This document shows positions 1-39,166 of a stretch of DNA of 64,000 nucleotides, one piece after another. The notes under the pieces were generated by a model. It was given only the letters and a program-made list of their open reading frames with translations. It was not told the origin of the DNA and ran no database searches. Source of the DNA: Escherichia coli (lineage in GTDB: Bacteria; Pseudomonadota; Gammaproteobacteria; Enterobacterales; Enterobacteriaceae); the NCBI RefSeq assembly GCF_044647545.1, contig NZ_CP172818.1. One strand, 5' to 3'. The translations under genes and the position numbers were made by a program. How positions within the stretch are numbered: position 1 is the stretch's first letter; each line of letters begins with the position of its first letter.

Positions 1-1871
1 GAATTTTATCAGCGTTCGATTAACGAACCGGAGCAGTTCTGGGCCGAGCAGGCCGTGTATTGACTGGCAGACGCCCTTTACGCAAACGCTCGATCACAGC
101 AATCCGCCGTTTGCCCGTTGGTTTTGTGAAGGCTGAACCAACTTGTGCACAACGCTATCGACCGCTGGCTGGAGAAACAGCCAGAGGCGCTGGCGCTGAT
201 TGCCGTCTCTTCGGAAACAGAAGAAGAGCGCACCTTTACCTTTCGTCAGCTGCATGACGAAGTGAACGCGGTGGCCTCAATGTTGCGTTCATTGGGCGTG
301 CAGCGTGGCGATCGGGTGCTGGTGTATATGCCGATGATTGCCGAAGCGCATATTACTCTGCTGGCCTGCGCGCGCATTGGCGCTATTCACTCGGTGGTGT
401 TTGGGGGATTTGCCTCGCACAGCGTGGCGGCGCGAATTGATGATGCTAAACCGGTGCTGATTGTCTCGGCTGATGCCGGAGCGCGCGGTGGCAAAATCAT
501 TCCCTATAAAAAATTGCTCGACGATGCGATAAGTCAGGCGCAGCACCAGCCACGCCATGTTTTGCTGGTGGATCGCGGGCTGGCGAAAATGGCGCGCGTC
601 AGCGGGCGGGATGTCGATTTCGCGTCGTTGCGCCATCAACACATCGGCGCGCGGGTACCGGTGGCGTGGCTGGAATCCAACGAAACCTCCTGCATTCTCT
701 ACACCTCCGGCACGACCGGCAAACCTAAAGGCGTGCAGCGTGACGTCGGCGGATATGCGGTGGCGCTGGCGACCTCGATGGACACCATTTTTGGCGGCAA
801 AGCGGGCGGTGTGTTCCTTTGTGCTTCGGATATCGGCTGGGTGGTGGGGCGTTCTATATCGTCTACGCGCCGCTGCTGGCGGGGATGGCGACTATCGTTT
901 ACGAAGGATTACCGACCTGGCCGGACTGCGGCGTGTGGTGGAAAATCGTCGAGAAATATCAGGTTAGCCGGATGTTCTCAGCGCCGACCGCCATTCGCGT
1001 GCTGAAAAAATTCCCTACCGCTGAAATTCGCAAACACGATCTCTCGTCGCTGGAAGTGCTCTATCTGGCTGGAGAACCGCTGGACGAGCCGACCGCCAGT
1101 TGGGTGAGCAATACGCTGGATGTGCCGGTGATCGACAACTACTGGCAGACCGAATCCGGCTGGCCGATTATGGCGATTGCTCGCGGTCTGGACGACAGGC
1201 CGACGCGTCTGGGAAGCCCCGGTGTGCCGATGTATGGCTATAACGTGCAGTTGCTTAATGAAGTCACCGGCGAACCGTGTGGCGTCAACGAGAAAGGGAT
1301 GCTGGTGGTGGAAGGGCCGCTGCCGCCGGGGTGTATTCAGACCATCTGGGGCGACGACGGCCGCTTTGTGAAGACTTACTGGTCGCTGTTTTCCCGCCCG
1401 GTGTACGCCACCTTTGACTGGGGCATCCGTGACGCTGACGGTTATCACTTTATTCTCGGGCGCACTGACGATGTGATTAACGTTGCCGGGCATCGGCTGG
1501 GGACGCGCGAGATTGAAGAGAGTATCTCCAGCCATCCGGGCGTTGCCGAAGTGGCGGTGGTTGGGGTGAAAGATGCGCTGAAAGGGCAGGTGGCGGTGGC
1601 GTTTGTCATTCCGAAAGAGAGCGACAGTCTGGAAGATCGTGATGTGGCGCACTCGCAAGAGAAGGCGATTATGGCGCTGGTGGACAGCCAGATTGGCAAC
1701 TTTGGCCGCCCGGCGCACGTCTGGTTTGTCTCGCAATTGCCAAAAACGCGATCCGGAAAAATGCTGCGCCGCACGATCCAGGCGATTTGCGAAGGACGCG
1801 ATCCTGGAGATCTGACGACCATTGATGATCCTGCGTCGTTGGATCAGATCCGCCAGGCGATGGAAGAGTAG
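1..1871 (+). pseudogene. prpE: propionyl-CoA synthetase (AMP-forming acyl-CoA synthetase), 5'-truncated by window edge and frame-disrupted
   Basis: Translation is acyl-CoA synthetase-like (YTSGTTGKPKG motif ~696-731; C-terminal SGKMLRR). Frame is broken: stop at 61-63 in entry frame, TGA at 134-136 in the continuing frame, frame changes near 146-148 and 850-854; ORF fragments 145-1005 and 819-1871 overlap in different frames. Confidence 0.8.
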
Positions 1872-1875
1872 GTTA

Positions 1876-2050
1876 TTGTCGGATGCGTCGCGCGGCGCAT
1901 CCGGCACTGGTGCCGATGCCTGATGCGACGCTGACGCGTCTTATCATGCCTACGGACCTGAACCGTAGGTCGGATAAGGCGCTCGCGCCGCATCCGACAC
2001 CATGCTCAGATGCCTGATGCGACGCTGACGCGTCTTATCAGGCCTACCCA
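1876..2050. repeat. cluster of REP-like palindromic units (BIME-like)
   Basis: Repeated GCCGGATGCG...CGCATCCGAC / GCCTGATGCGACGCTGACGCGTCTTATCAGGCCTAC palindromes typical of enterobacterial REP elements. Confidence 0.6.
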
Positions 2051-2117
2051 CTGTTTTTACACCGATAATTTTTCCCCCACCTTTTTGCACTCATTCATAT
2101 AAAAAATATATTTCCCC

Positions 2118-2133
2118 ACGAAAACGATTGCTT
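2118..2133 (+). promoter_or_regulatory. PurR-box-like operator upstream of codB
   Basis: acgaaaacgattgctt resembles the PurR operator consensus (aCGcAAaCGtTTtCnT); position fits the codBA promoter. Recollection-based. Confidence 0.4.
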
Positions 2134-2199
2134 TTTATCTTCAGATGAATAGAATGCGGCGGATTTTTTGGGTTTCAAACAGCAAAAAGGGGGAATTTC

Positions 2200-3455
2200 G
2201 TGTCGCAAGATAACAACTTTAGCCAGGGGCCAGTCCCGCAGTCGGCGCGGAAAGGGGTATTGGCATTGACGTTCGTCATGCTGGGATTAACCTTCTTTTC
2301 CGCCAGTATGTGGACCGGCGGCACTCTGGAACCGGTCTTAGCTATCATCAATTCTTTCCTCGCAGTTCTCATCGGTAATCTTCTCCTCGGTATTTACACT
2401 TGATTTCTCGGTTACATTGGCGCAAACCGGCCTGACCACTCATCTTCTTGCTCGCTTCTGGTTTGGTGTTAAAGGCTCATGGCTGCCTTCACTGCTACTG
2501 GGCGGAACTCAGGTTGGCTGGTTTGGCGTCGGTGTGGCGATGTTTGCCATTTCGGTGGGTAAGGCAACCGGGCTGGATATTAATTTGCTGATTGCCGTTT
2601 CCGGTTTACTGATGACCGTCACCGTCTTTTTTGGCATTTGGCGCTGACGGTTCTTTCGGTGATTGCGGTTCCGGCTATCGCCTGCCTGGGCGGTTATTCC
2701 GTGTGGCTGGCTGTTAACGGCATGGGCGGCCTGGACGCATTAAAAGCGGTCGTTCCCGCACAACCGTTAATTTCAATCTCGCGCTGGCGCTGGTTGTGGT
2801 CATTTTCTGGTGGGTACGCTCGCCGCTGGCGCCTTTTGTCCGGTTTGGTCGCAATGCCAAACTGGCGGTGCTGGTGGCGATGGTGGCCTTTTTCCTCGGC
2901 AACTGGTTGATGTTTATTTTCGGTGCAGCGGGCGCTGCGGCACTGCGCATGGCGGATATCTCTGATGTGATGATTGCTCAGGGCCTGCTGCTGCCTGCGA
3001 TTGTGGTGCTGGGGCTGAATATCTGGACCACCAACGATAACGCACTCTATGCGTCGGGTTTAGGTTTCGCCAACATTACCGGGATGTCGAGCAAAACCCT
3101 TTCGGTAATCAACGGTATTATCGGTACGGTCTGCGCATTATGGCTGTATAACAATTTTGTCGGCTGGTTGACCTTCCTTTCGGCAGCTATTCCTCCAGTG
3201 GGTGGCGTGATCATCGCCGACTATCTGATGAACCGTCGCCGCTATGAGCACTTTGCGACCACGCGTATGATGAGTGTCAATTGGGTGGCGATTCTGGCGG
3301 TCGCCTTGGGGATTGCTGCAGGCCACTGGTTACCGGGAATTGTTCCGGTCAACGCGGTATTAGGTGGCGCGCTGAGCTATCTGATCCTTAACCCGATTTT
3401 GAATCGTAAAACGACAGCAGCAATGACGCATGTGGAGGCTAACAGTGTCGAATAA
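2200..3455 (+). pseudogene. codB: cytosine permease, frame-disrupted
   Basis: GTG start at 2200 with upstream SD; N-terminus MSQDNNFSQGPVPQSARKG. Gene is split into four ORF fragments (2200-2403, 2417-2647, 2638-2910, 2796-3455): premature TGA 2401-2403 and frame changes near 2404-2430, ~2636 and ~2770. Confidence 0.8.
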
Positions 3456-4728
3456 CGCTTTACAAACAATTATTAACGCCCGGTTACCAGGCGAAGAGGG
3501 GCTGTGGCAGATTCATCTGCAGGACGGAAAAATCAGCGCCATTGATGCGCAATCCGGCGTGATGCCCATAACTGAAAACAGCCTGGATGCCGAACAAGGT
3601 TTAGTTATACCGCCGTTTGTGGAGCCACATATTCACCTGGACACCACGCAAACCGCCGGACAACCGAACTGGAATCAGTCCGGCACGCTGTTTGAAGGCA
3701 TTGAACGCTGGGCCGAGCGCAAAGCGTTATTAACCCATGACGATGTGAAACAACGCGCATGGCAAACGCTGAAATGGCAGATTGCCAACGGCATTCAGCA
3801 TGTGCGTACCCATGTCGATGTTTCGGATGCAACGCTAACTGCGCTGAAAGCAATGCTGGAAGTGAAGCAGGAAGTCGCGCCGTGGATTGATCTGCAAATC
3901 GTCGCCTTCCCTCAGGAAGGGATTTTGTCGTATCCCAACGGTGAAGCGTTGCTGGAAGAGGCGTTACGCTTAGGGGCAGATGTAGTGGGGGCGATTCCGC
4001 ATTTTGAATTTACCCGTGAATACGGCGTGGAGTCGCTGCATAAAACCTTCGCCCTGGCGCAAAAATACGACCGTCTCATCGACGTTCACTGTGATGAGAT
4101 CGATGACGAGCAGTCGCGCTTTGTCGAAACCGTTGCTGCCCTGGCGCACCATGAAGGCATGGGCGCGCGAGTCACCGCCAGCCACACCACGGCAATGCAC
4201 TCCTATAACGGGGCGTATACCTCACGCCTGTTCCGCTTGCTGAAAATGTCCGGTATTAACTTTGTCGCCAACCCGCTGGTCAATATTCATCTGCAAGGAC
4301 GTTTCGATACGTATCCAAAACGTCGCGGCATCACGCGCGTTAAAGAGATGCTGGAGTCCGGCATTAACGTCTGCTTTGGTCACGATGATGTCTTCGATCC
4401 GTGGTATCCGCTGGGAACGGCGAATATGCTGCAAGTGCTGCATATGGGGCTGCATGTTTGCCAGTTGATGGGCTACGGGCAGATTAACGATGGCCTGAAT
4501 TTAATCACCCACCACAGCGCAAGGACGTTGAATTTGCAGGATTACGGCATTGCCGCCGGAAACAGCGCCAACCTGATTATCCTGCCGGCTGAAAATGGGT
4601 TTGATGCGCTGCGCCGTCAGGTTCCGGTACGTTATTCGGTACGTGGCGGCAAGGTGATTGCCAGCACACAACCGGCACAAACCACCGTATATCTGGAGCA
4701 GCCAGAAGCCATCGATTACAAACGTTGA
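3445..4728 (+). CDS. codA: cytosine deaminase
   Basis: GTG start at 3445 ([14 protein letters not shown]...), 427 aa, 11-bp overlap with codB end; amidohydrolase motifs (HIHLD). Confidence 0.9.
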
Positions 4729-4750
4729 ACGACTGGGTTACAGCGAGCTT

Positions 4751-5150
4751 AGTTTATGCCGGATGCGGCGTGAACGCCTTATCCGGCCTACGTAGAGCAC
4801 TGAACTCGTAGGCCTGATAAGCGTAGCGCATCAGGCAATTCCAGCCGCTGATCTGTGTCAGCGGCTACCGTGATTCATTCCCGCCAACAACCGCGCATTC
4901 CTCCAACGCCATGTGCAAAAATGCCTTCGCAGCGGCTGTCTGCCAGCTGTAGTTTATGCCGGATGCGGCGTGAACGCCTTATCCGGCCTACGTAGAGCAC
5001 TGAACTCGTAGGCCTGATAAGCGTAGCGCATCAGGCAATTCCAGCCGCAGACCTGTGTCAGCGGCTACCGTGATTCATTTCCGCCAACAACCGCGCATTT
5101 ATCCAACGCCATGTGCAAAAATGCCTTCGCGGCGGCTGTCTGCCAGCTAT
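4751..5150. repeat. 200-bp direct tandem duplication (two copies, ~96% identical) containing REP-like palindrome and the 3' end of cynR
   Basis: Copy 1 at 4751-4950 and copy 2 at 4951-5150 align base-for-base with ~7 mismatches; copy 2 overlaps the last ~86 bp of cynR. Confidence 0.8.
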
Positions 5151-5964
5151 TTTTCCGCCGCAACAAAACCGCCGTTCTCTCCAGTAGTGGCGGGGCAAGA
5201 GAAATAGCTTTAAGCCCGTCATGTTGTGTGGCAATCGCTGCTGGTAACAATGTGGAAAGGGAAGTGCGGCGAATCAGCTCCAGAACCGCGCTAATTGAGT
5301 TCGCCTCAATGACCACCTGTGGATGTAGCCCCGCTTTCTCGCAGTAGTGGTCAATTTGCTCTCTGGTGGCAAATTCCGCGCTGAGCAGGACCAGTTTTTC
5401 ATCATGCAAGCGACTCAACGCCACCTGTTCATGGACGGCCAGCGGATGATGTTGCGCCACGACTAACGCTAAACTTTCTGTCAGTAAAGGAATTGCCTCC
5501 AGCTCCGGCGAATGCACAGGCGCGAAGGCAATCCCAACGTCCAACTCGTCGCGGCAAAGCATATCCTCGATTTTCTCCTGCGACATTTCCTGTAGCTGGA
5601 GCGTGATGCTGGGATAGCGCGCATAGAAATCCGCCATTAAGGGGCCGATAAAGTAGCTCGTAAAGGTGGGGGTGACGGCGATACGCAGCGATCCTCGCGT
5701 CAGATCGGCAACATCATGAATCGCCCGTTTACCCGCCCCCAGTTCCTGTAACGCCCGGCTGGCGTACTGTCGCCAGACTTCTCCTGCATCAGTGAGACGA
5801 ATCGTTCGCCCGCTACGGTCAAACAGCGGCACGCCTAAACTCTCCTCTAACTGGCGAATCTGCTGGGAAAGCGCAGGTTGGGAGACGTGCAACGCACTGG
5901 CGGCACGGGTGAAGCTGCCATGTTCAGCCACGGCAAGAAAATAATTGATATGTCGAGAGAGCAT
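5065..5964 (-). CDS. cynR: LysR-type transcriptional regulator of the cyn operon
   Basis: 299-aa ORF starting [40 protein letters not shown] (LysR HTH), divergent from cynT. Confidence 0.9.
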
Positions 5965-6072
5965 TCGCAACCTATAAGTAAATCCAATGGAACTCATCAT
6001 AAATGAGACTTTTACCTTATGACAATCGGCGAGTAGTCTGCCTCTCATTCCAGAGACAGACAGAGGTTAACG

Positions 6073-6732
6073 GTGAAAGAGATTATTGATGGATTCCTTA
6101 AATTCCAGCGCGAGGCATTTCCGAAGCGGGAAGCCTTGTTTAAACAGCTGGCGACACAGCAAAGCCCGCGCACACTTTTTATCTCCTGCTCCGACAGCCG
6201 TCTGGTCCCTGAGCTGGTGACGCAACGTGAGCCTGGCGATCTGTTCGTTATTCGCAACGCGGGCAATATCGTCCCTTCCTACGGGCCGGAACCCGGTGGC
6301 GTTTCTGCTTCGGTGGAGTATGCCGTCGCTGCGCTTCGGGTATCTGACATTGTGATTTGTGGTCATTCCAACTGTGGCGCGATGACCGCCATTGCCAGCT
6401 GTCAGTGCATGGACCATATGCCTGCCGTCTCCCACTGGCTGCGTTATGCCGATTCAGCCCGCGTCGTTAATGAGGCGCGCCCGCATTCCGATTTACCGTC
6501 AAAAGCTGCGGCGATGGTACGTGAAAACGTCATTGCTCAGTTGGCTAATTTGCAAACTCATCCATCGGTGCGCCTGGCGCTCGAAGAGGGGCGGATCGCC
6601 CTGCACGGCTGGGTCTACGACATTGAAAGCGGCAGCATCGCAGCTTTTGACGGCGCAACCCGCCAGTTTGTGCCACTGGCCGCTAATCCTCGCGTTTGTG
6701 CCATACCGCTACGCCAACCGACCGCAGCGTAA
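6073..6732 (+). CDS. cynT: carbonic anhydrase (beta class)
   Basis: 219-aa ORF, GTG start; beta-carbonic-anhydrase motifs (CSDSR, HSNCG). Confidence 0.9.
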
Positions 6733-6744
6733 CCTTATTTTTAA

Positions 6745-7233
<489 letters not shown>

Positions 7234-7265
7234 CAGCCATGCGCAACCATCAAAAGACGTTCACG

Positions 7266-8420
7266 ATGCTGCTGGTACTGGTGCTGATTGGTCTTAATAT
7301 GCGACCACTGCTCACCTCCGTCGGGCCACTGCTACCGCAATTGCGCCAGGCGAGCGGAATGAGCTTTAGCGTGGCTGCCCTGTTGACCGCTCTGCCGGTG
7401 GTTACCATGGGCGGGCTGGCGCTGGCCGGAAGCTGGCTTCATCAGCATGTCAGCGAACGTCGCAGTGTCGCCATCAGTCTGTTGCTGATTGCCGTCGGTG
7501 CATTGATGCGTGAGCTTTACCCGCAAAGTGCGCTGCTGCTTAGCAGCGCACTGCTTGGTGGGGTGGGGATCGGCATCATTCAGGCGGTGATGCCTTCGGT
7601 GATTAAACGGCGGTTTCAGCAGCGCACGCCACTGGTGATGGGGCTGTGGTCCGCGGCTCTGATGGGCGGCGGTGGGCTTGGTGCCGCCATAACGCCCTGG
7701 TTAGTTCAACATAGCGAAACCTGGTATCAAACACTCGCCTGGTGGGCGCTGCCTGCCGTTGTTGCGCTCTTTGCCTGGTGGTGGCAAAGCGCCCGCGAGG
7801 TCGCCTCTTCCCACAAGACAACAACCACTCCGGTTCGCGTGGTATTCACTCCCCGCGCGTGGACGCTGGGTGTTTACTTCGGTCTGATTAACGGCGGTTA
7901 CGCCAGCCTGATTGCCTGGTTACCCGCTTTCTATATTGAGATTGGTGCCAGCGCGCAGTACAGCGGTTCCTTACTGGCATTGATGACGCTTGGGCAAGCC
8001 GCAGGAGCTTTGCTGATGCCTGCTATGGCTCGCCATCAGGATCGGCGCAAACTGTTAATGCTGGCGCTGGTGTTACAACTGGTGGGGTTCTGCGGCTTTA
8101 TCTGGCTGCCGATGCAATTGCCGGTATTGTGGGCGATGGTGTGTGGGTTAGGTCTGGGCGGCGCGTTTCCGCTCTGTTTGCTGCTGGCGCTCGATCACTC
8201 TGTGCAACCGGCTATTGCTGGCAAGCTGGTGGCGTTTATGCAGGGAATCGGTTTTATCATCGCCGGGCTTGCCCCGTGGTTTTCTGGCGTGCTGCGTAGT
8301 ATCAGCGGCAATTACCTGATGGACTGGGCATTTCATGCGCTGTGCGTCGTTGGGCTGATGATCATAACCCTGCGTTTTGCACCAGTACGTTTTCCGCAGC
8401 TGTGGGTCAAAGAGGCATGA
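7266..8420 (+). CDS. cynX: MFS cyanate transporter
   Basis: Hydrophobic multi-TM ORF; 384 aa from ATG 7266 (an upstream in-frame ATG at 7239 would give 393 aa). Confidence 0.85.
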   Translation: MLLVLVLIGLNMRPLLTSVGPLLPQLRQASGMSFSVAALLTALPVVTMGGLALAGSWLHQHVSERRSVAISLLLIAVGALMRELYPQSALLLSSALLGGVGIGIIQAVMPSVIKRRFQQRTPLVMGLWSAALMGGGGLGAAITPWLVQHSETWYQTLAWWALPAVVALFAWWWQSAREVASSHKTTTTPVRVVFTPRAWTLGVYFGLINGGYASLIAWLPAFYIEIGASAQYSGSLLALMTLGQAAGALLMPAMARHQDRRKLLMLALVLQLVGFCGFIWLPMQLPVLWAMVCGLGLGGAFPLCLLLALDHSVQPAIAGKLVAFMQGIGFIIAGLAPWFSGVLRSISGNYLMDWAFHALCVVGLMIITLRFAPVRFPQLWVKEA

Positions 8421-8520
8421 TGCGACGCTTGTTCCTGCGCTTTGTTCATGCCGGATGCGGCTAATGTAGATCGCTGAACTTGTAGGCCTGATAAGCGCAG
8501 CGTATCAGGCAATTTTTATA
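8421..8520. repeat. REP-like palindromic element between cynX and lacA
   Basis: GCCGGATGCGGC / GCCTGATAAGCGCAGCG palindromic units. Confidence 0.5.
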
Positions 8521-8522
8521 AT

Positions 8523-9134
8523 TTAAACTGACGATTCAACTTTATAATCTTTGAAATAATAGTGCTTATCCCGGTCGTTTATTTCGCGAATAACCCGACA
8601 AGGAACGCCAGCCGCCACGACGTTTGGTGGAATGTCTTTTGTGACGATACTACCCGCGCCAATAACAGAATTATCCCCGATGGTGACGCCTGGATTAATA
8701 ACCACATGACTTCCGATCCAGACGTTATTGCCAATCGTTATCGGAAAAGAGTACATCTCGCCGTTTTTTCTCAATTCATGGTGTACAGGGTGTCCCGTAA
8801 CGGAAAGAGTAACGTTGGGTGCAATCAGTACGTTATCACCGATTGTTACCGTGTAGTCATCGACAATGGTTAAATTGAAATTTGCATAAAAATTGCGGCC
8901 TATATGGATGTTGGAACCGTAAGAGAAATAGACAGGCGGTTCTACCCAGGCGTTTTCCCCTACCGTGGCAAACATTTCTTTAATCAGGCTTTCTCTTTTT
9001 TCAACTTCTGATGGATGCGAGTGATTAAACTCATACATTAACGTTTTCCCACGAAGTCTTTTTTCCGGTAAGCCTTCGCACATATCGGTAAATAGCTTGC
9101 CTGCTCTTATTCTTTCGGTCATTGGCATGTTCAA
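8523..9134 (-). CDS. lacA: galactoside O-acetyltransferase
   Basis: 203-aa hexapeptide-repeat acetyltransferase; start is TTG (complement at 9132-9134) giving LNMPMTER, consistent with the known unusual lacA start. Confidence 0.9.
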   Translation of the reverse strand: MNMPMTERIRAGKLFTDMCEGLPEKRLRGKTLMYEFNHSHPSEVEKRESLIKEMFATVGENAWVEPPVYFSYGSNIHIGRNFYANFNLTIVDDYTVTIGDNVLIAPNVTLSVTGHPVHHELRKNGEMYSFPITIGNNVWIGSHVVINPGVTIGDNSVIGAGSIVTKDIPPNVVAAGVPCRVIREINDRDKHYYFKDYKVESSV

Positions 9135-9199
9135 TGCGATCACTCCGTTATGATATGTTGGTCGGATAAGGCGCTCGCGCCGCATCCGACATTGATTGC

Positions 9200-10498
<1,299 letters not shown>

Positions 10499-22155: not shown

Positions 22156-22329
22156 TGATGACTGCCGAGAACGTGCATTTTGTATGCCCATCCCAGCACG
22201 ACTGCCGGATGTAAACGCCTTGTTCGGCCTACATTTTCTTCGCCTGTAGGCAGTCATTAAATGGTTCTGATTACGCGGCTGGCAATGTATCAGCCGCGAT
22301 TCACCTGCACTCGCAACGAGGTTCATCTT

Positions 22330-24199: not shown

Positions 24200-24340
24200 G
24201 CAGCACCCACACCAGCCAGCAAGAGCGGATAAGGCGTCCGCCCACCGGCAGCGTGCATCCTGATGACGCTTTGCATCTATCATCCTAGTTTCCAGAAATA
24301 GGATAAGGCGTTCACGCCGCATCCGGCAGTCGTGCACTAT
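24200..24340. repeat. REP-like palindromic elements between yaiL and frmB
   Basis: GGATAAGGCGTTCACGCCGCATCCGGCAG-type units. Confidence 0.5.
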
Positions 24341-27646: not shown

Positions 27647-28203
27647 TTAATCTCCTGTACGGATAAGTTCTTGTCGGAGTGAATAAGTTCCGGTAGGTAA
27701 ATTACGTTCTACAATCACGCGCGGGCCAAGTTGCGTGTTCGGGGAAATAATTCGCCCAGGCAAAATAATAACTTGTACGCCAAGGCGTGAACGCTGTCCG
27801 ATATAACAACCTAATTTATCGCATCCGGTAGCGATAATTCCCTCTGGAGTTCGAACAGACACGGGCTGTTCATCCAGACGATGATTACTGGTACGTACTT
27901 GTGCGCCCAAATATGCCTGGTTTGCGACTACCGAGTCGGCAATAAAACATTGCGGACCAATCGTTGCTTCCGCTTCAATAACCGCATTTTTAATTTCGGT
28001 GGCGAAACCAATTTTTACGCCATTGCTGATTATTGTGCCAGGACGAATAAACGAAATTACCTATCAGGCAGTTTGCGCCAATCACTACCGGACCCTGAAT
28101 AACGGCACCGTGACAAATACGGGTATTCGCGCCGATAACAACTTCACCTGCAGTTTCATCAATAATTACCTGGTCTGCAATCTGAATATTTTTCTCTTTA
28201 ACA
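27647..28203 (-). pseudogene. yaiX: hexapeptide-repeat acyltransferase, frameshifted
   Basis: Hexapeptide repeats (VIGANTRICHGAVIQGPVVIGANCLIGN) continue in another frame (IRPGTIISNGVKIGFA...) with the switch near 28040-28060; no IS element at the break. Confidence 0.7.
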
Positions 28204-29400
28204 TTAAGCTTCAGAAAGTTTTTCAGTTCCTGTGACAGAAGGTTGGGAATAAGCGGTTGACGCTTCCACCAGTGCGGAATAGCGGGTGGGTTTGTCGCGC
28301 TGAGGTTCGCGTCCAGTAAAAAAGGCAATAAGTCCATAAATAATCCAGATGGCATAAGCTAATAATACATACACAACGGAAAGCGGCGCTAAAGGCACCA
28401 ACAACCAGCAACGATGAAACCAGGCGCTAAAAGCACCAATAACACAAACTACGCCGACCCAGATAAGCGGAAACATTGCCAACACCACACCATGCGGCCC
28501 GGTGGTGATGAATTCATTAAACCAGGTAGTGAGATAAATCCCAACGCCATAAAGCACAACCAACAGCATAGGAAATATACTGAAGATACCGAAGCGGCTA
28601 AATAAAAGTCTTTTATGCAGGCGCATACAGACCGCGTAGCCCACAATCCAACGCCGCCAGCGACGCCATTCCTCACGCGGGCTGTTGCATTCCTGTGGGT
28701 ATACGATGCAGCGATTCGCCTGCCGAATACGATAGCCGTTTGCCACCAATGTCCAGGTGAGATCAAGGTCTTCGACTTTAGTACGATCAGAGAAACCGAA
28801 CTTACGCAATACATCAGTACGGAACATCCCGCAGGCACCGCTGATAATAAACGGTGCGCCGCCCAGGAGCTGCTGTAGCGTGCGCTTCATAACAATCATC
28901 GGCAACTTTACGGTCGCGCGGATGTGCGGTAACAGCCCCGCGCCTTTCAACGCAGTAGAGGGAATGCCGCCTACGGCATCAGCACCGCGCTCAATTTCTG
29001 CCAGCATATAGCCCATTCCGTCTTGATCGGGCGGAACATAGGTGTCGGCATCACTTAAAAAAACCTGGTCGCAGGTGGCGTAATTGAGGCCATTCATCAG
29101 CGCACCACCTTTACCGGTATTTTTTTGCGTGACGGCAACAAAGCGGTCGCCCCATTTGCGTTTGACTTCCGCCATGACCGCTTCGGTATTGTCCGTGGAG
29201 CCGTCGTTAACGCAAATTACCCGGCAAAAATAAGGGTTACGCAGCAGATTATCCAGTGACTGCGCCAGACACGGGCCTTCGTTATAAGCAGGTATAATGG
29301 CGTCAATACAGCCTTTTTTTTGGCTGGGCTTACGCCTTAACGTACTCAGGAACCATAGCAATATTGCTACGGCCATACAGATAAATATCCAGGTTTTCAT
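28204..29400 (-). CDS. yaiP: membrane glycosyltransferase, family 2
   Basis: 398-aa ORF with N-terminal TM, GT-A signatures (CVNDGSTDNT, SDADTYV) and C-terminal TM helices. Confidence 0.85.
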   Translation of the reverse strand: MKTWIFICMAVAILLWFLSTLRRKPSQKKGCIDAIIPAYNEGPCLAQSLDNLLRNPYFCRVICVNDGSTDNTEAVMAEVKRKWGDRFVAVTQKNTGKGGALMNGLNYATCDQVFLSDADTYVPPDQDGMGYMLAEIERGADAVGGIPSTALKGAGLLPHIRATVKLPMIVMKRTLQQLLGGAPFIISGACGMFRTDVLRKFGFSDRTKVEDLDLTWTLVANGYRIRQANRCIVYPQECNSPREEWRRWRRWIVGYAVCMRLHKRLLFSRFGIFSIFPMLLVVLYGVGIYLTTWFNEFITTGPHGVVLAMFPLIWVGVVCVIGAFSAWFHRCWLLVPLAPLSVVYVLLAYAIWIIYGLIAFFTGREPQRDKPTRYSALVEASTAYSQPSVTGTEKLSEA

Positions 29401-34111: not shown

Positions 34112-34135
34112 ACGGATAACCCGGCATAATGATCA

Positions 34136-35110: not shown

Positions 35111-37124
35111 GGTCTGCCTGATGTTTGTGGAATCGAGGGGCATAGTATACCTGAAGCAGGGTGGGGATGTTTTACGAAAGTTGTCGCGATGTTGACAAGA
35201 AGAGAATGAATGAGAGGCCAGGACATCTTTGTAATAGAAATAGCAATAATTTCATATTCACTGAAAATATTTTTAATTTTTATTTATAGTCATGGATTAT
35301 TGTTTTTGGGGATTTGGTTGCGTTATCAAAAACGGAATGATTTAAAGTTCATTGGTTATTGATAGATTATTTGTCTGGTTTGTGTGTTTGATATTTTAAA
35401 TGCATATGCTTTAAAAATGGAAATCCTGTTAACTTGTTGAAACATTAAGCCTTTATCAATTTTTTCTTTGTGTGTTCCTCCGTGCTTTATATATGTCCGT
35501 AACCGGACTTCGGGGAAAGAATAATTGAACCATTCCTCAATAACGCCGCATAATCGTTAGCGCGAAACATAATATGTTTTCTATGCATTGATAATTGATG
35601 GATCAACTTATTACGTCCCTGAGGAGGGATGACAAATGCACTCCTGGAAAAAGAAACTTGTAGTATCACAATTAGCATTGGCTTGCACTCTGGCTATCAC
35701 CTCTCAGGCTAATGCAGCGACCTACTGATACCTGGACTTATATCGATAATCCCGTTACAGCACTTGATTGGGATCATATGGATAAGGCAGGCACTGTAGA
35801 TGGCAACTATGTAAACTATAGTGGTTTTGTCTATTACAACAACACCAATGGTGATTTCGATCAGTCCTTTAACGGCGATACCGTTAACGGCACGATCTCA
35901 ACCTATTATTTGAACCATGATTATGCAGACAGTACTGCTAATCAGCTTGATATCAGTAATTCAGTGATTCACGGTTCGATTACTTCTATGCTGCCTGGCG
36001 GTTATTATGATCGTTTTGATGCAGATGGTAATAATCTGGGTGGATATGATTTTTACACTGATGCGGTTGTTGATACACACTGGCGTGATGGTGATGTTTT
36101 CACTTTGAACATTGCTAACACTACTATTGATGATGATTATGAAGCTCTTTACTTCACTGATTCTTATAAAGATGGTGATGTAACCAAGCACACAAATGAG
36201 ACATTTGATACAAGTGAAGGCGTTGCTGTTAATCTTGATGTAGAAAGTAACATCAATATTTCCAATAACTCCCGCGTTGCAGGTATTGCATTATCTCAAG
36301 GTAATACTTACAACGAAACCTACACTACCGAATCTCATACTTGGGATAACAATATCTCTGTAAAAGATTCCACAGTGACTTCGGGTTCAAATTATATCCT
36401 GGATAGCAATACTTATGGCAAAACTGGTCACTTTGGCAATTCTGATGAACCGAGTGATTATGCTGGCCCGGGTGATGTTGCAATGTCCTTTACTGCTTCA
36501 GGTTCCGACTATGCGATGAAGAACAATGTATTCCTCAGCAATTCAACGCTGATGGGTGATGTTGCCTTTACCAGCACCTGGAATAGTAATTTTGATCCGA
36601 ATGGTCATGATTCCAACGGTGACGGGGTGAAAGATACCAACGGGGGTTGGACTGATGATAGCCTCAACGTTGATGAACTAAATCTCACTCTCGATAACGG
36701 AAGCAAGTGGGTTGGTCAGGCAATTTATAACGTTGCTGAAACGTCAGCAATGTATGATGTTGCTACAAACAGCCTTACTCCTGATGCAACATATGAAAAC
36801 AATGACTGGAAACGTGTTGTTGATGACAAGGTCTTCCAGAGCGGTGTATTTAACGTAGCGTTGAATAACGGTTCTGAATGGGATACTACAGGTCGTTCCA
36901 TCGTTGATACCTTGACAGTTAATAATGGTTCTCAGGTTAATGTTTCGGAATCTAAATTAACTTCAGATACTATCGATTTAACTAACGGTTCTTCGCTGAA
37001 CATTGGTGAAGATGGCTACGTTGATACCGATCATCTGACTATTAACTCCTACAGTACTGTTGCGTTGACCGAATCTACTGGGTGGGGGGCTGATTGATCC
37101 TACCCACGTAATATGGACACAGGC

Positions 37125-37991
37125 CTAAGCGAGGTTCTTGTTTTCAAATTGTTCCGGACTGAGGCCGCCACACCAACTGTGCCGCCGCCACCGATTGTAA
37201 TCACATTCGATATAATTAAACACCGTTGCCCGCATTATTTCCCGGCTGATAAAGTGTTCTCCATGGATACATTCCACTTTCAGCGAATGAAAGAAGCTTT
37301 CCACGCAGGCATTATCGTAGCAGCAACCTTTTGCGCTCATACTTCCACGCAGATTATGCCGCTTCAGTTGCGCCTGATAATCTGCTGAACAGTACTGGCC
37401 TCCACGGTCCGTGTGAACGATAACGTTCCGGGGCCTCTTACGCCGCCACAGCGCCATCTGCAGGGCATCGCAGGCCAGTTGCGCCGTCATGCGTGGCGAC
37501 ATTGACCAGCCAATAACGGCACGTGACCACAGGTCAATGACCACTGCCAGATACAGCCAGCCTTCATCTGTACGTAAGTACGTGATGTCTCCTGCCCACT
37601 TCTGGTTCGGGCCACTGGCGTAAAAATCCTGCTCCAACAGATTTTCTGACACAGGCAGGCCGTGTGCGCGGTAGCTGACCGGGCTGAACTTCCGGGAGGC
37701 CTTTGCCCTCAGTCCCTGACGGCGCAGGCTTGCCGCCACGGTTTTTACGTTAAAGGGGTAACCCTGAGCACGCAGTTCATCCGTCAGGCGTGGGGCACCG
37801 TAACGCTGTTTTGACCGGGTAAAAGCCGCGAGGACAACGCTGTCGCAGTGTTGGCGGAACTGCTGACGCGTGCTTATCCTTGTCCGCCGCTGACACCACG
37901 TATACCAGCCGCTGCGGGCCACCCGGAGCACGCGGCACATTGCTTTGATGCTGAACTCAGCCTGATGTTTTTCAATAAAGACATACTTCAT
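37125..37991 (-). CDS. insF: IS3 transposase OrfB (DDE integrase domain), expressed with OrfA by -1 frameshifting
   Basis: 288-aa ORF overlapping insE by 4 bp (ATGA); DDE/integrase-like translation. Confidence 0.9.
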
Positions 37992-38296
37992 TTCAGGCGC
38001 TTCGCGAAGTATGTCGCGGCCTTTTGGAGGATAGCCAGCTCTTCATCCCGTTCTGCCAGCTGGCGTTTGAGACGTGCAATCTCGGTAGACATCTCCAGTT
38101 CACGTTCAGAAGACGTCTGCTGATTTTGCTGTTTACTGCGCCAGTTGTAGAGTTGTGATTCATACAGGCTGAGTTCACGGGCTGCGGCAGTAACACCGAT
38201 GCGTTCAGCAAGCTTCAGGGCTTCACTGCGAAATTCAGGCGAATGCTGTTTACGGGGTTTTTTACTGGTTGATACTGTTTTTGTCATGTGAGTCAC
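37988..38296 (-). CDS. insE: IS3 transposase OrfA (HTH)
   Basis: 102-aa [58 protein letters not shown]... Confidence 0.9.
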
Positions 38297-39166
38297 CTCT
38301 GACTGAGAGTTTACTCACTTAGCCGCGTGTCCACTATTGCTGGGTAAGATCAGATTACAACCTGTACGCCAATACTATCACCGTAACTAACGGCGGTGTA
38401 TTGGATGTGAACGTTGATCAGTTCGATACTGAAGCTTTCCGTACTGACAAACTGGAACTGACCAGCGGCAACATCGCTGACCATAACGGTAACGTAGTAT
38501 CTGGTGTGTTCAATATCGAAAGCAACCGCTTCGTACTTGATGCCGACCTGACCAACGACCGTACCAACGATACTACCAAGTCAAACTACGGTTATGGTTT
38601 AATCGCAATGAACTCTGATGGTCACCTGACCATTAACGGTAACGGCGATAACGACAACACTGCTTCTATCGAAGCTGGTCAGAACGAAGTTGATAACAAC
38701 GGTGACCATGTTGCAGCTGCAACCGGTAACTACAAAGTTCGTATCGACAACGCTACTGGTGCTGGTTCTATCGCTGACTACAACGGCAACGAGCTGATCT
38801 ACGTTAACGACAAAAACAGCAACGCGACCTTCTCTGCTGCTAACAAAGCTGACCTGGGTGCATACACCTATCAGGCTGAACAGCGCGGTAACACCGTTGT
38901 TCTGCAACAGATGGAGCTGACCGACTACGCTAACATGGCGCTGAGCATCCCGTCTGCGAACACCAATATCTGGAACCTGGAACAAGACACCGTTGGTACT
39001 CGTCTGACCAACTCTCGTCATGGCCTGGCTGATAACGGCGGCGCATGGGTAAGCTACTTCGGTGGTAACTTCAACGGCGACAATGGCACCATCAACTATG
39101 ATCAGGATGTTAACGGCATCATGGTCGGTGTTGATACCAAAATTGACGGTAACAACGCTAAGTGGA

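Follow-up and report, generated by a model that had tools for sequence, protein, structure and literature searches.

Described counterparts of the codBA region

In Escherichia coli K-12, codB, which encodes the NCS1 cytosine permease, and codA, which encodes cytosine deaminase, form the codBA operon between prpE and cynR. The same operon is found in the stretch of DNA analysed here, a window of 64,000 nucleotides from E. coli (contig NZ_CP172818.1 of assembly GCF_044647545.1), where its location, the region upstream of it and the 11-nt overlap of the two genes are those of K-12. codA is 100% identical to its K-12 counterpart, and codB is identical outside positions 2328-2946. The difference between the two operons is that, in the window, the 419-aa codB ORF is cut into four by 15 events that fall within 619 bp and are private to this sequence.

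Damage to this region has a precedent in Shigella, where the functions of prpBCDER, codBA and lacY have been reported absent across lineages as a case of convergent loss (Touchon et al. 2009, PMC2617782). The window resembles this case in that the same neighbouring genes, prpE and codB, are affected, but differs from it in keeping codA and lacY intact. Furthermore, whereas the Shigella report concerns absent functions, the window shows micro-indels and transversions on a K-12-identical allele, private to one sequence in a comparison that Shigella DNA lies outside of.

A different kind of precedent comes from faulty records. E. coli NA114 is a misassembled 'complete' genome of ST131, ordered against SE15 and not against K-12 (Forde et al. 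2014, PMC4134206). Errors of this type are comparable to the window in that differences with a biological look arise from the construction of the record. The window, for its part, combines a common lineage with K-12-type blocks and carries small defects at the seams; NA114 differs in having SE15 as its ordering reference, and nothing ties the window to NA114.

The third point of comparison is given by the mutation clusters of APOBEC kataegis and of DddA toxins, with which the damaged tract shares a strong 5'-TC bias and tight clustering. Contrary to these clusters, the tract is dominated by C->G changes and deletions and not by C->T, and extends over both strands with non-C events and multi-nucleotide indels. 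Of the readings considered here, the one preferred is that the four-piece codB is probably an error-rich stretch of a record that is either chimeric or was built with the aid of a reference, and not the true state of the gene.

Organization of the damaged codB and its intact partner

The features on which the comparison relies are the following.

1-1871, plus strand: prpE (propionate--CoA ligase), from codon 5 at the window edge, broken by private indels.
2061-2199, plus strand: K-12-identical sequence preceding codBA, holding a single promoter-like hexamer pair (2084-2112).
2200-3455, plus strand: codB (NCS1 cytosine permease) remnant, its native frame traceable through 9 indel events and 1 stop.
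2200-2403, plus strand: codB piece 1, 67 aa, GTG start, ending at the TGA of 2401-2403 and holding a -1/+1 pair at 2328/2355.
2417-2647, plus strand: codB piece 2, 76 aa, TTG start, its frame set by a 2-nt loss at 2424.
2638-2910, plus strand: codB piece 3, 90 aa, TTG start, its frame following a 1-nt loss at 2640 and off the CodB frame past 2770.
2796-3455, plus strand: codB piece 4, 219 aa, GTG start, following the native CodB frame between about 2834 and the stop codon (residues ~213-419).
2328-2946, no strand assigned: lesion tract, 26 differing alignment columns in about 15 events, all private to the window.
2947-9578, no strand assigned: K-12-identical block covering 3' codB, codA, cynR, cynTSX, lacA and 3' lacY, with zero differences.
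3445-4728, plus strand: codA (cytosine deaminase), intact, beginning with GTG and sharing 11 nt with the end of codB.

The position of codB is orthologous to that in K-12, as the first gene of codBA with prpE on one side and codA on the other. The initial annotation described it as split into four ORFs of 67, 76, 90 and 219 aa, a description borne out by the ORF list. The premature TGA that it placed at 2401-2403 is indeed in frame, where it replaces TCA (Ser68) of K-12 CodB, and the frame changes reported near 2404-2430, ~2636 and ~2770 correspond to the loss of 2 nt at 2424 and of single nucleotides at 2640 and 2770. These three shifts and the stop were thus correctly recognized, but the extent of the damage was underestimated, several more lesions having been overlooked. 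The uninterrupted ORF of about 419 aa that would encode the full membrane protein is absent from the window.

A Pfam search matches pieces 1, 2 and 4 to PF02133 (Transp_cyt_pur, the cytosine/purine permease family) in colinear order, covering profile positions 1-59, 67-154 and 224-439, respectively. Piece 4 is 93% identical to residues 191-419 of K-12 CodB. Piece 3, half of which is out of frame, has no Pfam match. A scan of codB revealed no internal promoter or terminator of note. The hexamer pair upstream of the operon was picked out by a consensus scan only, which is no evidence of function.

Since the pieces remain colinear with CodB, it could be argued that full-length CodB is still made by recoding, through programmed frameshifts and stop read-through; nothing else speaks for it. 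This has a practically negligible probability, as it would need nine separate frame changes (of -2, -1, +1 and +4 nt) in addition to read-through of the TGA. No slippery sites are present, and the arrangement occurs in no other genome among 5,223. The number and kinds of lesions effectively refute recoding.

Downstream, codA had been annotated as intact, and a single full-length match with 100% identity to K-12 CodA over 427 aa leaves this standing. The protein matches the Amidohydro_3 and Amidohydro_1 profiles, and a GGAGG Shine-Dalgarno sequence lies 7 nt upstream of its GTG start at 3445. From this arrangement it had been concluded that the deaminase may be made without its dedicated permease. 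This conclusion is unsupported: the lesions of codB are private, crowded, rich in indels and G<->C changes and context-dependent, which points to faulty sequence.

In operons, an early stop can lower the expression of downstream genes through Rho-dependent polarity. Were the lesions real, translation would end at codon 68 and leave about 1 kb of the codB mRNA untranslated, from which polarity on codA would be expected; the idea of a deaminase without a permease would then be only partly right, even though codA retains its own ribosome-binding site.

Composition of the lesion tract

The 15 events of the tract comprise nine indel events, one TGA, five G<->C transversions and a few others. The indels are -1 at 2328, +1 at 2355, -2 at 2424, -1 at 2640 and -1 at 2770, followed by -2 at 2800, -1 at 2806, -1 at 2810 and +4 at 2829-2834. 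As a result, the native frame changes nine times, with a net length change of codB of -4 nt. Besides the TCA->TGA change, substitutions are located at 2349, 2351, 2460, 2552, 2778, 2822, 2905 and 2946. All nine substitution columns alter the amino acid, and there is no trace of selection in them.

The edges of the tract are sharp. Outside 2328-2946 the background allele is, by alignment, exactly the codB allele of K-12, and the upstream stretch 1989-2327 shows zero differences from K-12. The tract has 15 events in its 619 bp, compared with zero in the 6,631 bp alongside it (Fisher P = 8e-17). A divergent codB acquired from elsewhere, or a blend with the codB allele of the lineage that makes up most of the window, is ruled out, because the K-12 base is found at every natural polymorphic site of the tract.

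The spectrum of the changes is equally distinctive. In the tract, 54% of the differing columns are indel columns, 23% are G<->C changes and 12% are transitions, whereas the natural differences between the window and K-12 at 9.6-64 kb (n = 1,156) comprise 2.8% indel columns, 5.6% G<->C changes and 69% transitions. Only two of the nine indel events are located in homopolymers. Most of the unambiguous single-base G:C events, eight out of ten, occur in a 5'-TC context that has a background frequency of 19% (P = 4e-5), with the recurring changes TCG->TGG, TCG->TG and TCA->TGA. By strand, six of these TC-context events are on the plus and two on the minus strand, and C->T accounts for only one of the ten G:C events. 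A:T pairs are hit in the tract as well, 2 nt have been lost from a run of A, and 4 nt have been inserted. It is the product of a systematic, context-dependent process, unlike the normal pattern of mutation and selection in E. coli.

Two other origins of the lesions were considered and rejected. The lesions, inspected by eye, are not at GATC or CCWGG sites, as would be the case for nanopore errors at Dam or Dcm motifs. Regarding a recoding of the serine codons TCG and TCA, three in-frame TCR codons are affected, but they become TGG or TGA and not AGC or AGT.

The TC bias, the tight clustering and the sharp edges are the features that speak for a genuine localized hypermutation, in which a single burst of TpC-focused damage destroyed the 5' half of codB. 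Proposed sources include a DddA- or APOBEC-like cytidine deaminase combined with abasic-site bypass, error-prone break repair, or targeted mutagenesis in the laboratory. Such an origin is nevertheless very unlikely. A cluster left by a TpC deaminase would consist of C:G changes in TC, mainly C->T, on one strand, and of these traits only the TC bias is seen. C->T, the main deamination outcome expected in E. coli, is the rarity described above, with C->G changes and deletions dominating instead; the events fall on both strands; and the A:T events, the loss in the A run and the 4-nt insertion stand among them. In addition, private lesions of other kinds reach 2 kb further, into prpE. No bacterial process is known to alter about 4% of the positions in 600 bp of a single lineage. 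In its boldest form, this reading takes the lesions as real and as a bacterial 'kataegis' over about 0.6-3 kb, due for instance to a dsDNA cytidine-deaminase toxin or to error-prone repair at a break, that knocked out codB and prpE in one step, a scenario to which very little weight is given. If the lesions were real, the TC-biased cluster would stand out as an unusual example of hypermutation confined to one part of a bacterial chromosome.

Damage to prpE

The gene preceding the operon is damaged as well, a point absent from the initial annotation. When the window is compared with K-12 proteins, 54 of 56 give single full-length matches, CodB and PrpE being the only exceptions. The private indels of prpE are -2 at 55, -1 at 148 and -1 at 855; its translation stops after the shift at 55, the frame is regained at 148 and a second shift follows at 855. 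Accordingly, tblastn finds prpE split across two frames. The private substitutions include a CGA->TGA change, which would be a stop in the native frame. These indels were found neither in K-12, EFF60, 33-6 and FDAARGOS_1285 nor in the genomes of the lineage described below.

The best genome match of positions 1-2200 reaches 99.3%. The prpE allele is not that of MG1655, and is closest to that of strain 33-6, with which it has about 13 natural-looking variants in common. These shared variants rule out a plain copy of the MG1655 reference into a gap at 1-2000.

Distribution of the lesions among other genomes

Among the 5,426 complete RefSeq E. coli genomes searched, codB is present in 5,223. The tract is shared by none of these 5,223, a set that Shigella genomes lie outside of, and the best identity to it is 96.0%. 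Not even one of its lesions is common to any relative among the genomes searched. A 46-nt exact pattern from the tract was not found in GTDB species representatives or in JGI metagenome contigs, and an exact-protein look-up of three codB fragment sequences, as well as of two ehaB fragments of the window, found none of them on record as called genes (codB) or at all (ehaB). Typical genomes of the lineage that makes up most of the window, with a LacZ identical to that of the window, carry an intact 419-aa codB and an intact 628-aa prpE.

A frameshifted codB is also annotated in the unrelated complete genome of E. coli FDAARGOS_1285 (NZ_CP070152.1), where the gene measures 1,261 nt and has one extra base in a G run. 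In the same genome mhpR is flagged as frameshifted too. The codB frameshift of this strain is probably a homopolymer error and a different lesion from those of the window.

The distribution bears on another explanation, namely that codB and prpE have truly decayed after relaxed selection on cytosine salvage and propionate use, with codA spared by chance. As in a natural pseudogene, the frame of codB is disrupted while the gene is intact in relatives, and purifying selection is absent from the substitutions of the tract. The two damaged genes are adjacent and dispensable, with more than 50 others intact; prpBCDER, codBA and lacY are the functions convergently lost in Shigella (PMC2617782); and some genomes of the lineage that makes up most of the window have undergone IS1-mediated deletions from lacY through prp. 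Even so, a multi-hit pseudogene is unlikely. The lesion load is out of proportion to how far the rest of codB and the adjoining DNA have diverged neutrally: on an allele otherwise identical to that of K-12, neutral decay could not have concentrated 15 events within 619 bp while sparing the remaining 509 bp of codB and the 6.1 kb beyond. The absence of every lesion from all relatives, across 5,223 genomes and with Shigella records outside the set, is also unlike a natural pseudogene, in which some lesions would be common to related genomes. Lastly, the indel- and G<->C-rich, TC-concentrated spectrum departs from the natural E. coli polymorphism of the same window in both its transitions (12% vs 69%) and its indel columns (54% vs 2.8%).

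Composite structure of the window

Colinear with K-12, the window covers the region prpE-codBA-cynR-cynTSX-lacAYZI-mhp to phoBR. Beyond about 9.5 kb, it belongs to a common natural lineage of E. coli, referred to here as lineage X; exact-protein look-ups of its FghA and LacZ variants retrieved ordinary genomes of this lineage. Positions 14312-35159 (20.8 kb) have 0 mismatches to GCA_030476185.1, and the LacZ variant of this lineage is found in 4,442 index blocks. Positions 1-9578, in turn, form a K-12/ST10-type block inside lineage X, across which (1-9500) typical lineage-X genomes are 2-4% different from the window. The combination of K-12-type and lineage-X sequence is absent from all complete RefSeq E. 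coli genomes, among which the best match for positions 3500-28000 is 98.5%.

The switch between the two lies inside lacY, between 9301 and 9578. This interval brackets 9363, the end of an IS1-bounded deletion in the lineage-X genome JARWMK010000001.1 that removes the region from lacY' through lacA, cyn and codBA to prp. In the lineage-X sequences CP103468.1 and JARWMK010000001.1, IS1 is located right after lacZ or within lacY and is followed directly by yahC-yahB-yahA-betT. These IS1 arrangements represent a natural deletion of lacY/lacA-cyn-codBA-prp, and the functions removed are those convergently lost in Shigella (PMC2617782).

A second K-12-identical block is found at 35725-38512 (2.8 kb); it carries IS3 inserted in yaiT/ehaB and replaces 1.6 kb of lineage-X ehaB. 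The IS3 junction itself is present in 365 of the 5,426 complete genomes. At the left seam of the block, a private 1-nt insertion is located at 35725, exactly at the end of the homology between K-12 and lineage X, and at the right seam there is an 11-nt microhomology (38501-38512) in very divergent DNA. There is no support for repeats in lineage-X ehaB having led to a contig break, as no direct repeats of at least 40 nt were found.

At 28054-28055, two separate nucleotides have been privately lost, a few bases from the target site of IS2 in K-12. The loss splits a hexapeptide acetyltransferase, which has 193 aa in lineage-X genomes, into minus-strand ORFs at 27647-27910 and 27990-28355. This locus is yaiX, split by IS2 in K-12, and the window is without IS2 there. 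The coding private indels of the window are thus all in the left 3 kb or at K-12/lineage-X discontinuities.

Probable origin of the tract and consequences for the record

A generally noisy assembly is ruled out by the 54 of 56 intact genes and the 0 mismatches over 20.8 kb, and a local cause must therefore be assumed. The private nature of the lesions, their crowding into 619 bp of an allele otherwise identical to that of K-12, their excess of indels and G<->C changes and their dependence on context point to faulty sequence and not to the state of a living strain. The pattern has the marks of an error tract: confined to a single record, it begins and ends abruptly between flawless flanks, and it is systematic and indel-rich, with the TC events turning TCG into TGG or TG.

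Under the preferred explanation of an error-rich tract in a composite record, the left 2.95 kb, spanning prpE, the REP-containing intergenic DNA and 750 bp at the start of codB, would be a K-12/ST10-type allele laden with base-calling or reconstruction errors. Errors would make up about 0.5% of prpE and about 4% of the stretch 2328-2946, with the sequence perfect again from 2947. The record as a whole would be a composite, with K-12-type sequence at 1-9578 and 35725-38512 and lineage X elsewhere, and its remaining private frameshifts would sit at the seams. It may have been put together with K-12-like sequence as a guide, or from data that were mixed or of low coverage, with prpE-codB as a segment of low quality. 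Candidate technical causes of the errors include reads of low coverage or from a single pass, an amplicon used for gap closing, and filling from a reference. In the real strain, codB would presumably be either intact or absent altogether.

Some observations do not fit a simple story of this kind, namely the non-MG1655 allele of prpE and the repeat-free ehaB of lineage X. The convergent loss of prp, codBA and lacY in Shigella (PMC2617782) may also be counted as a precedent against it.

If the tract is indeed a sequence error, the codB and prpE 'pseudogenes' and the frameshifts at 28054 and 35725 are not to be counted as gene loss. The same loci would be unfit for inferences on pseudogenes or metabolism and for claims that deaminase and permease are uncoupled, and the record should be handled as composite, with K-12-type sequence joined to that of a common E. 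coli lineage. The broken codB is probably of no biological interest.

Outside the coding regions, some REP-like sequences also differ from all references fetched. These differences, which could be natural REP variation or more reconstruction noise, comprise an intergenic stretch at 24204-24301 with 55 nt without match and scattered gaps, together with losses of 5 nt at 22212 and 15 nt at 34112.
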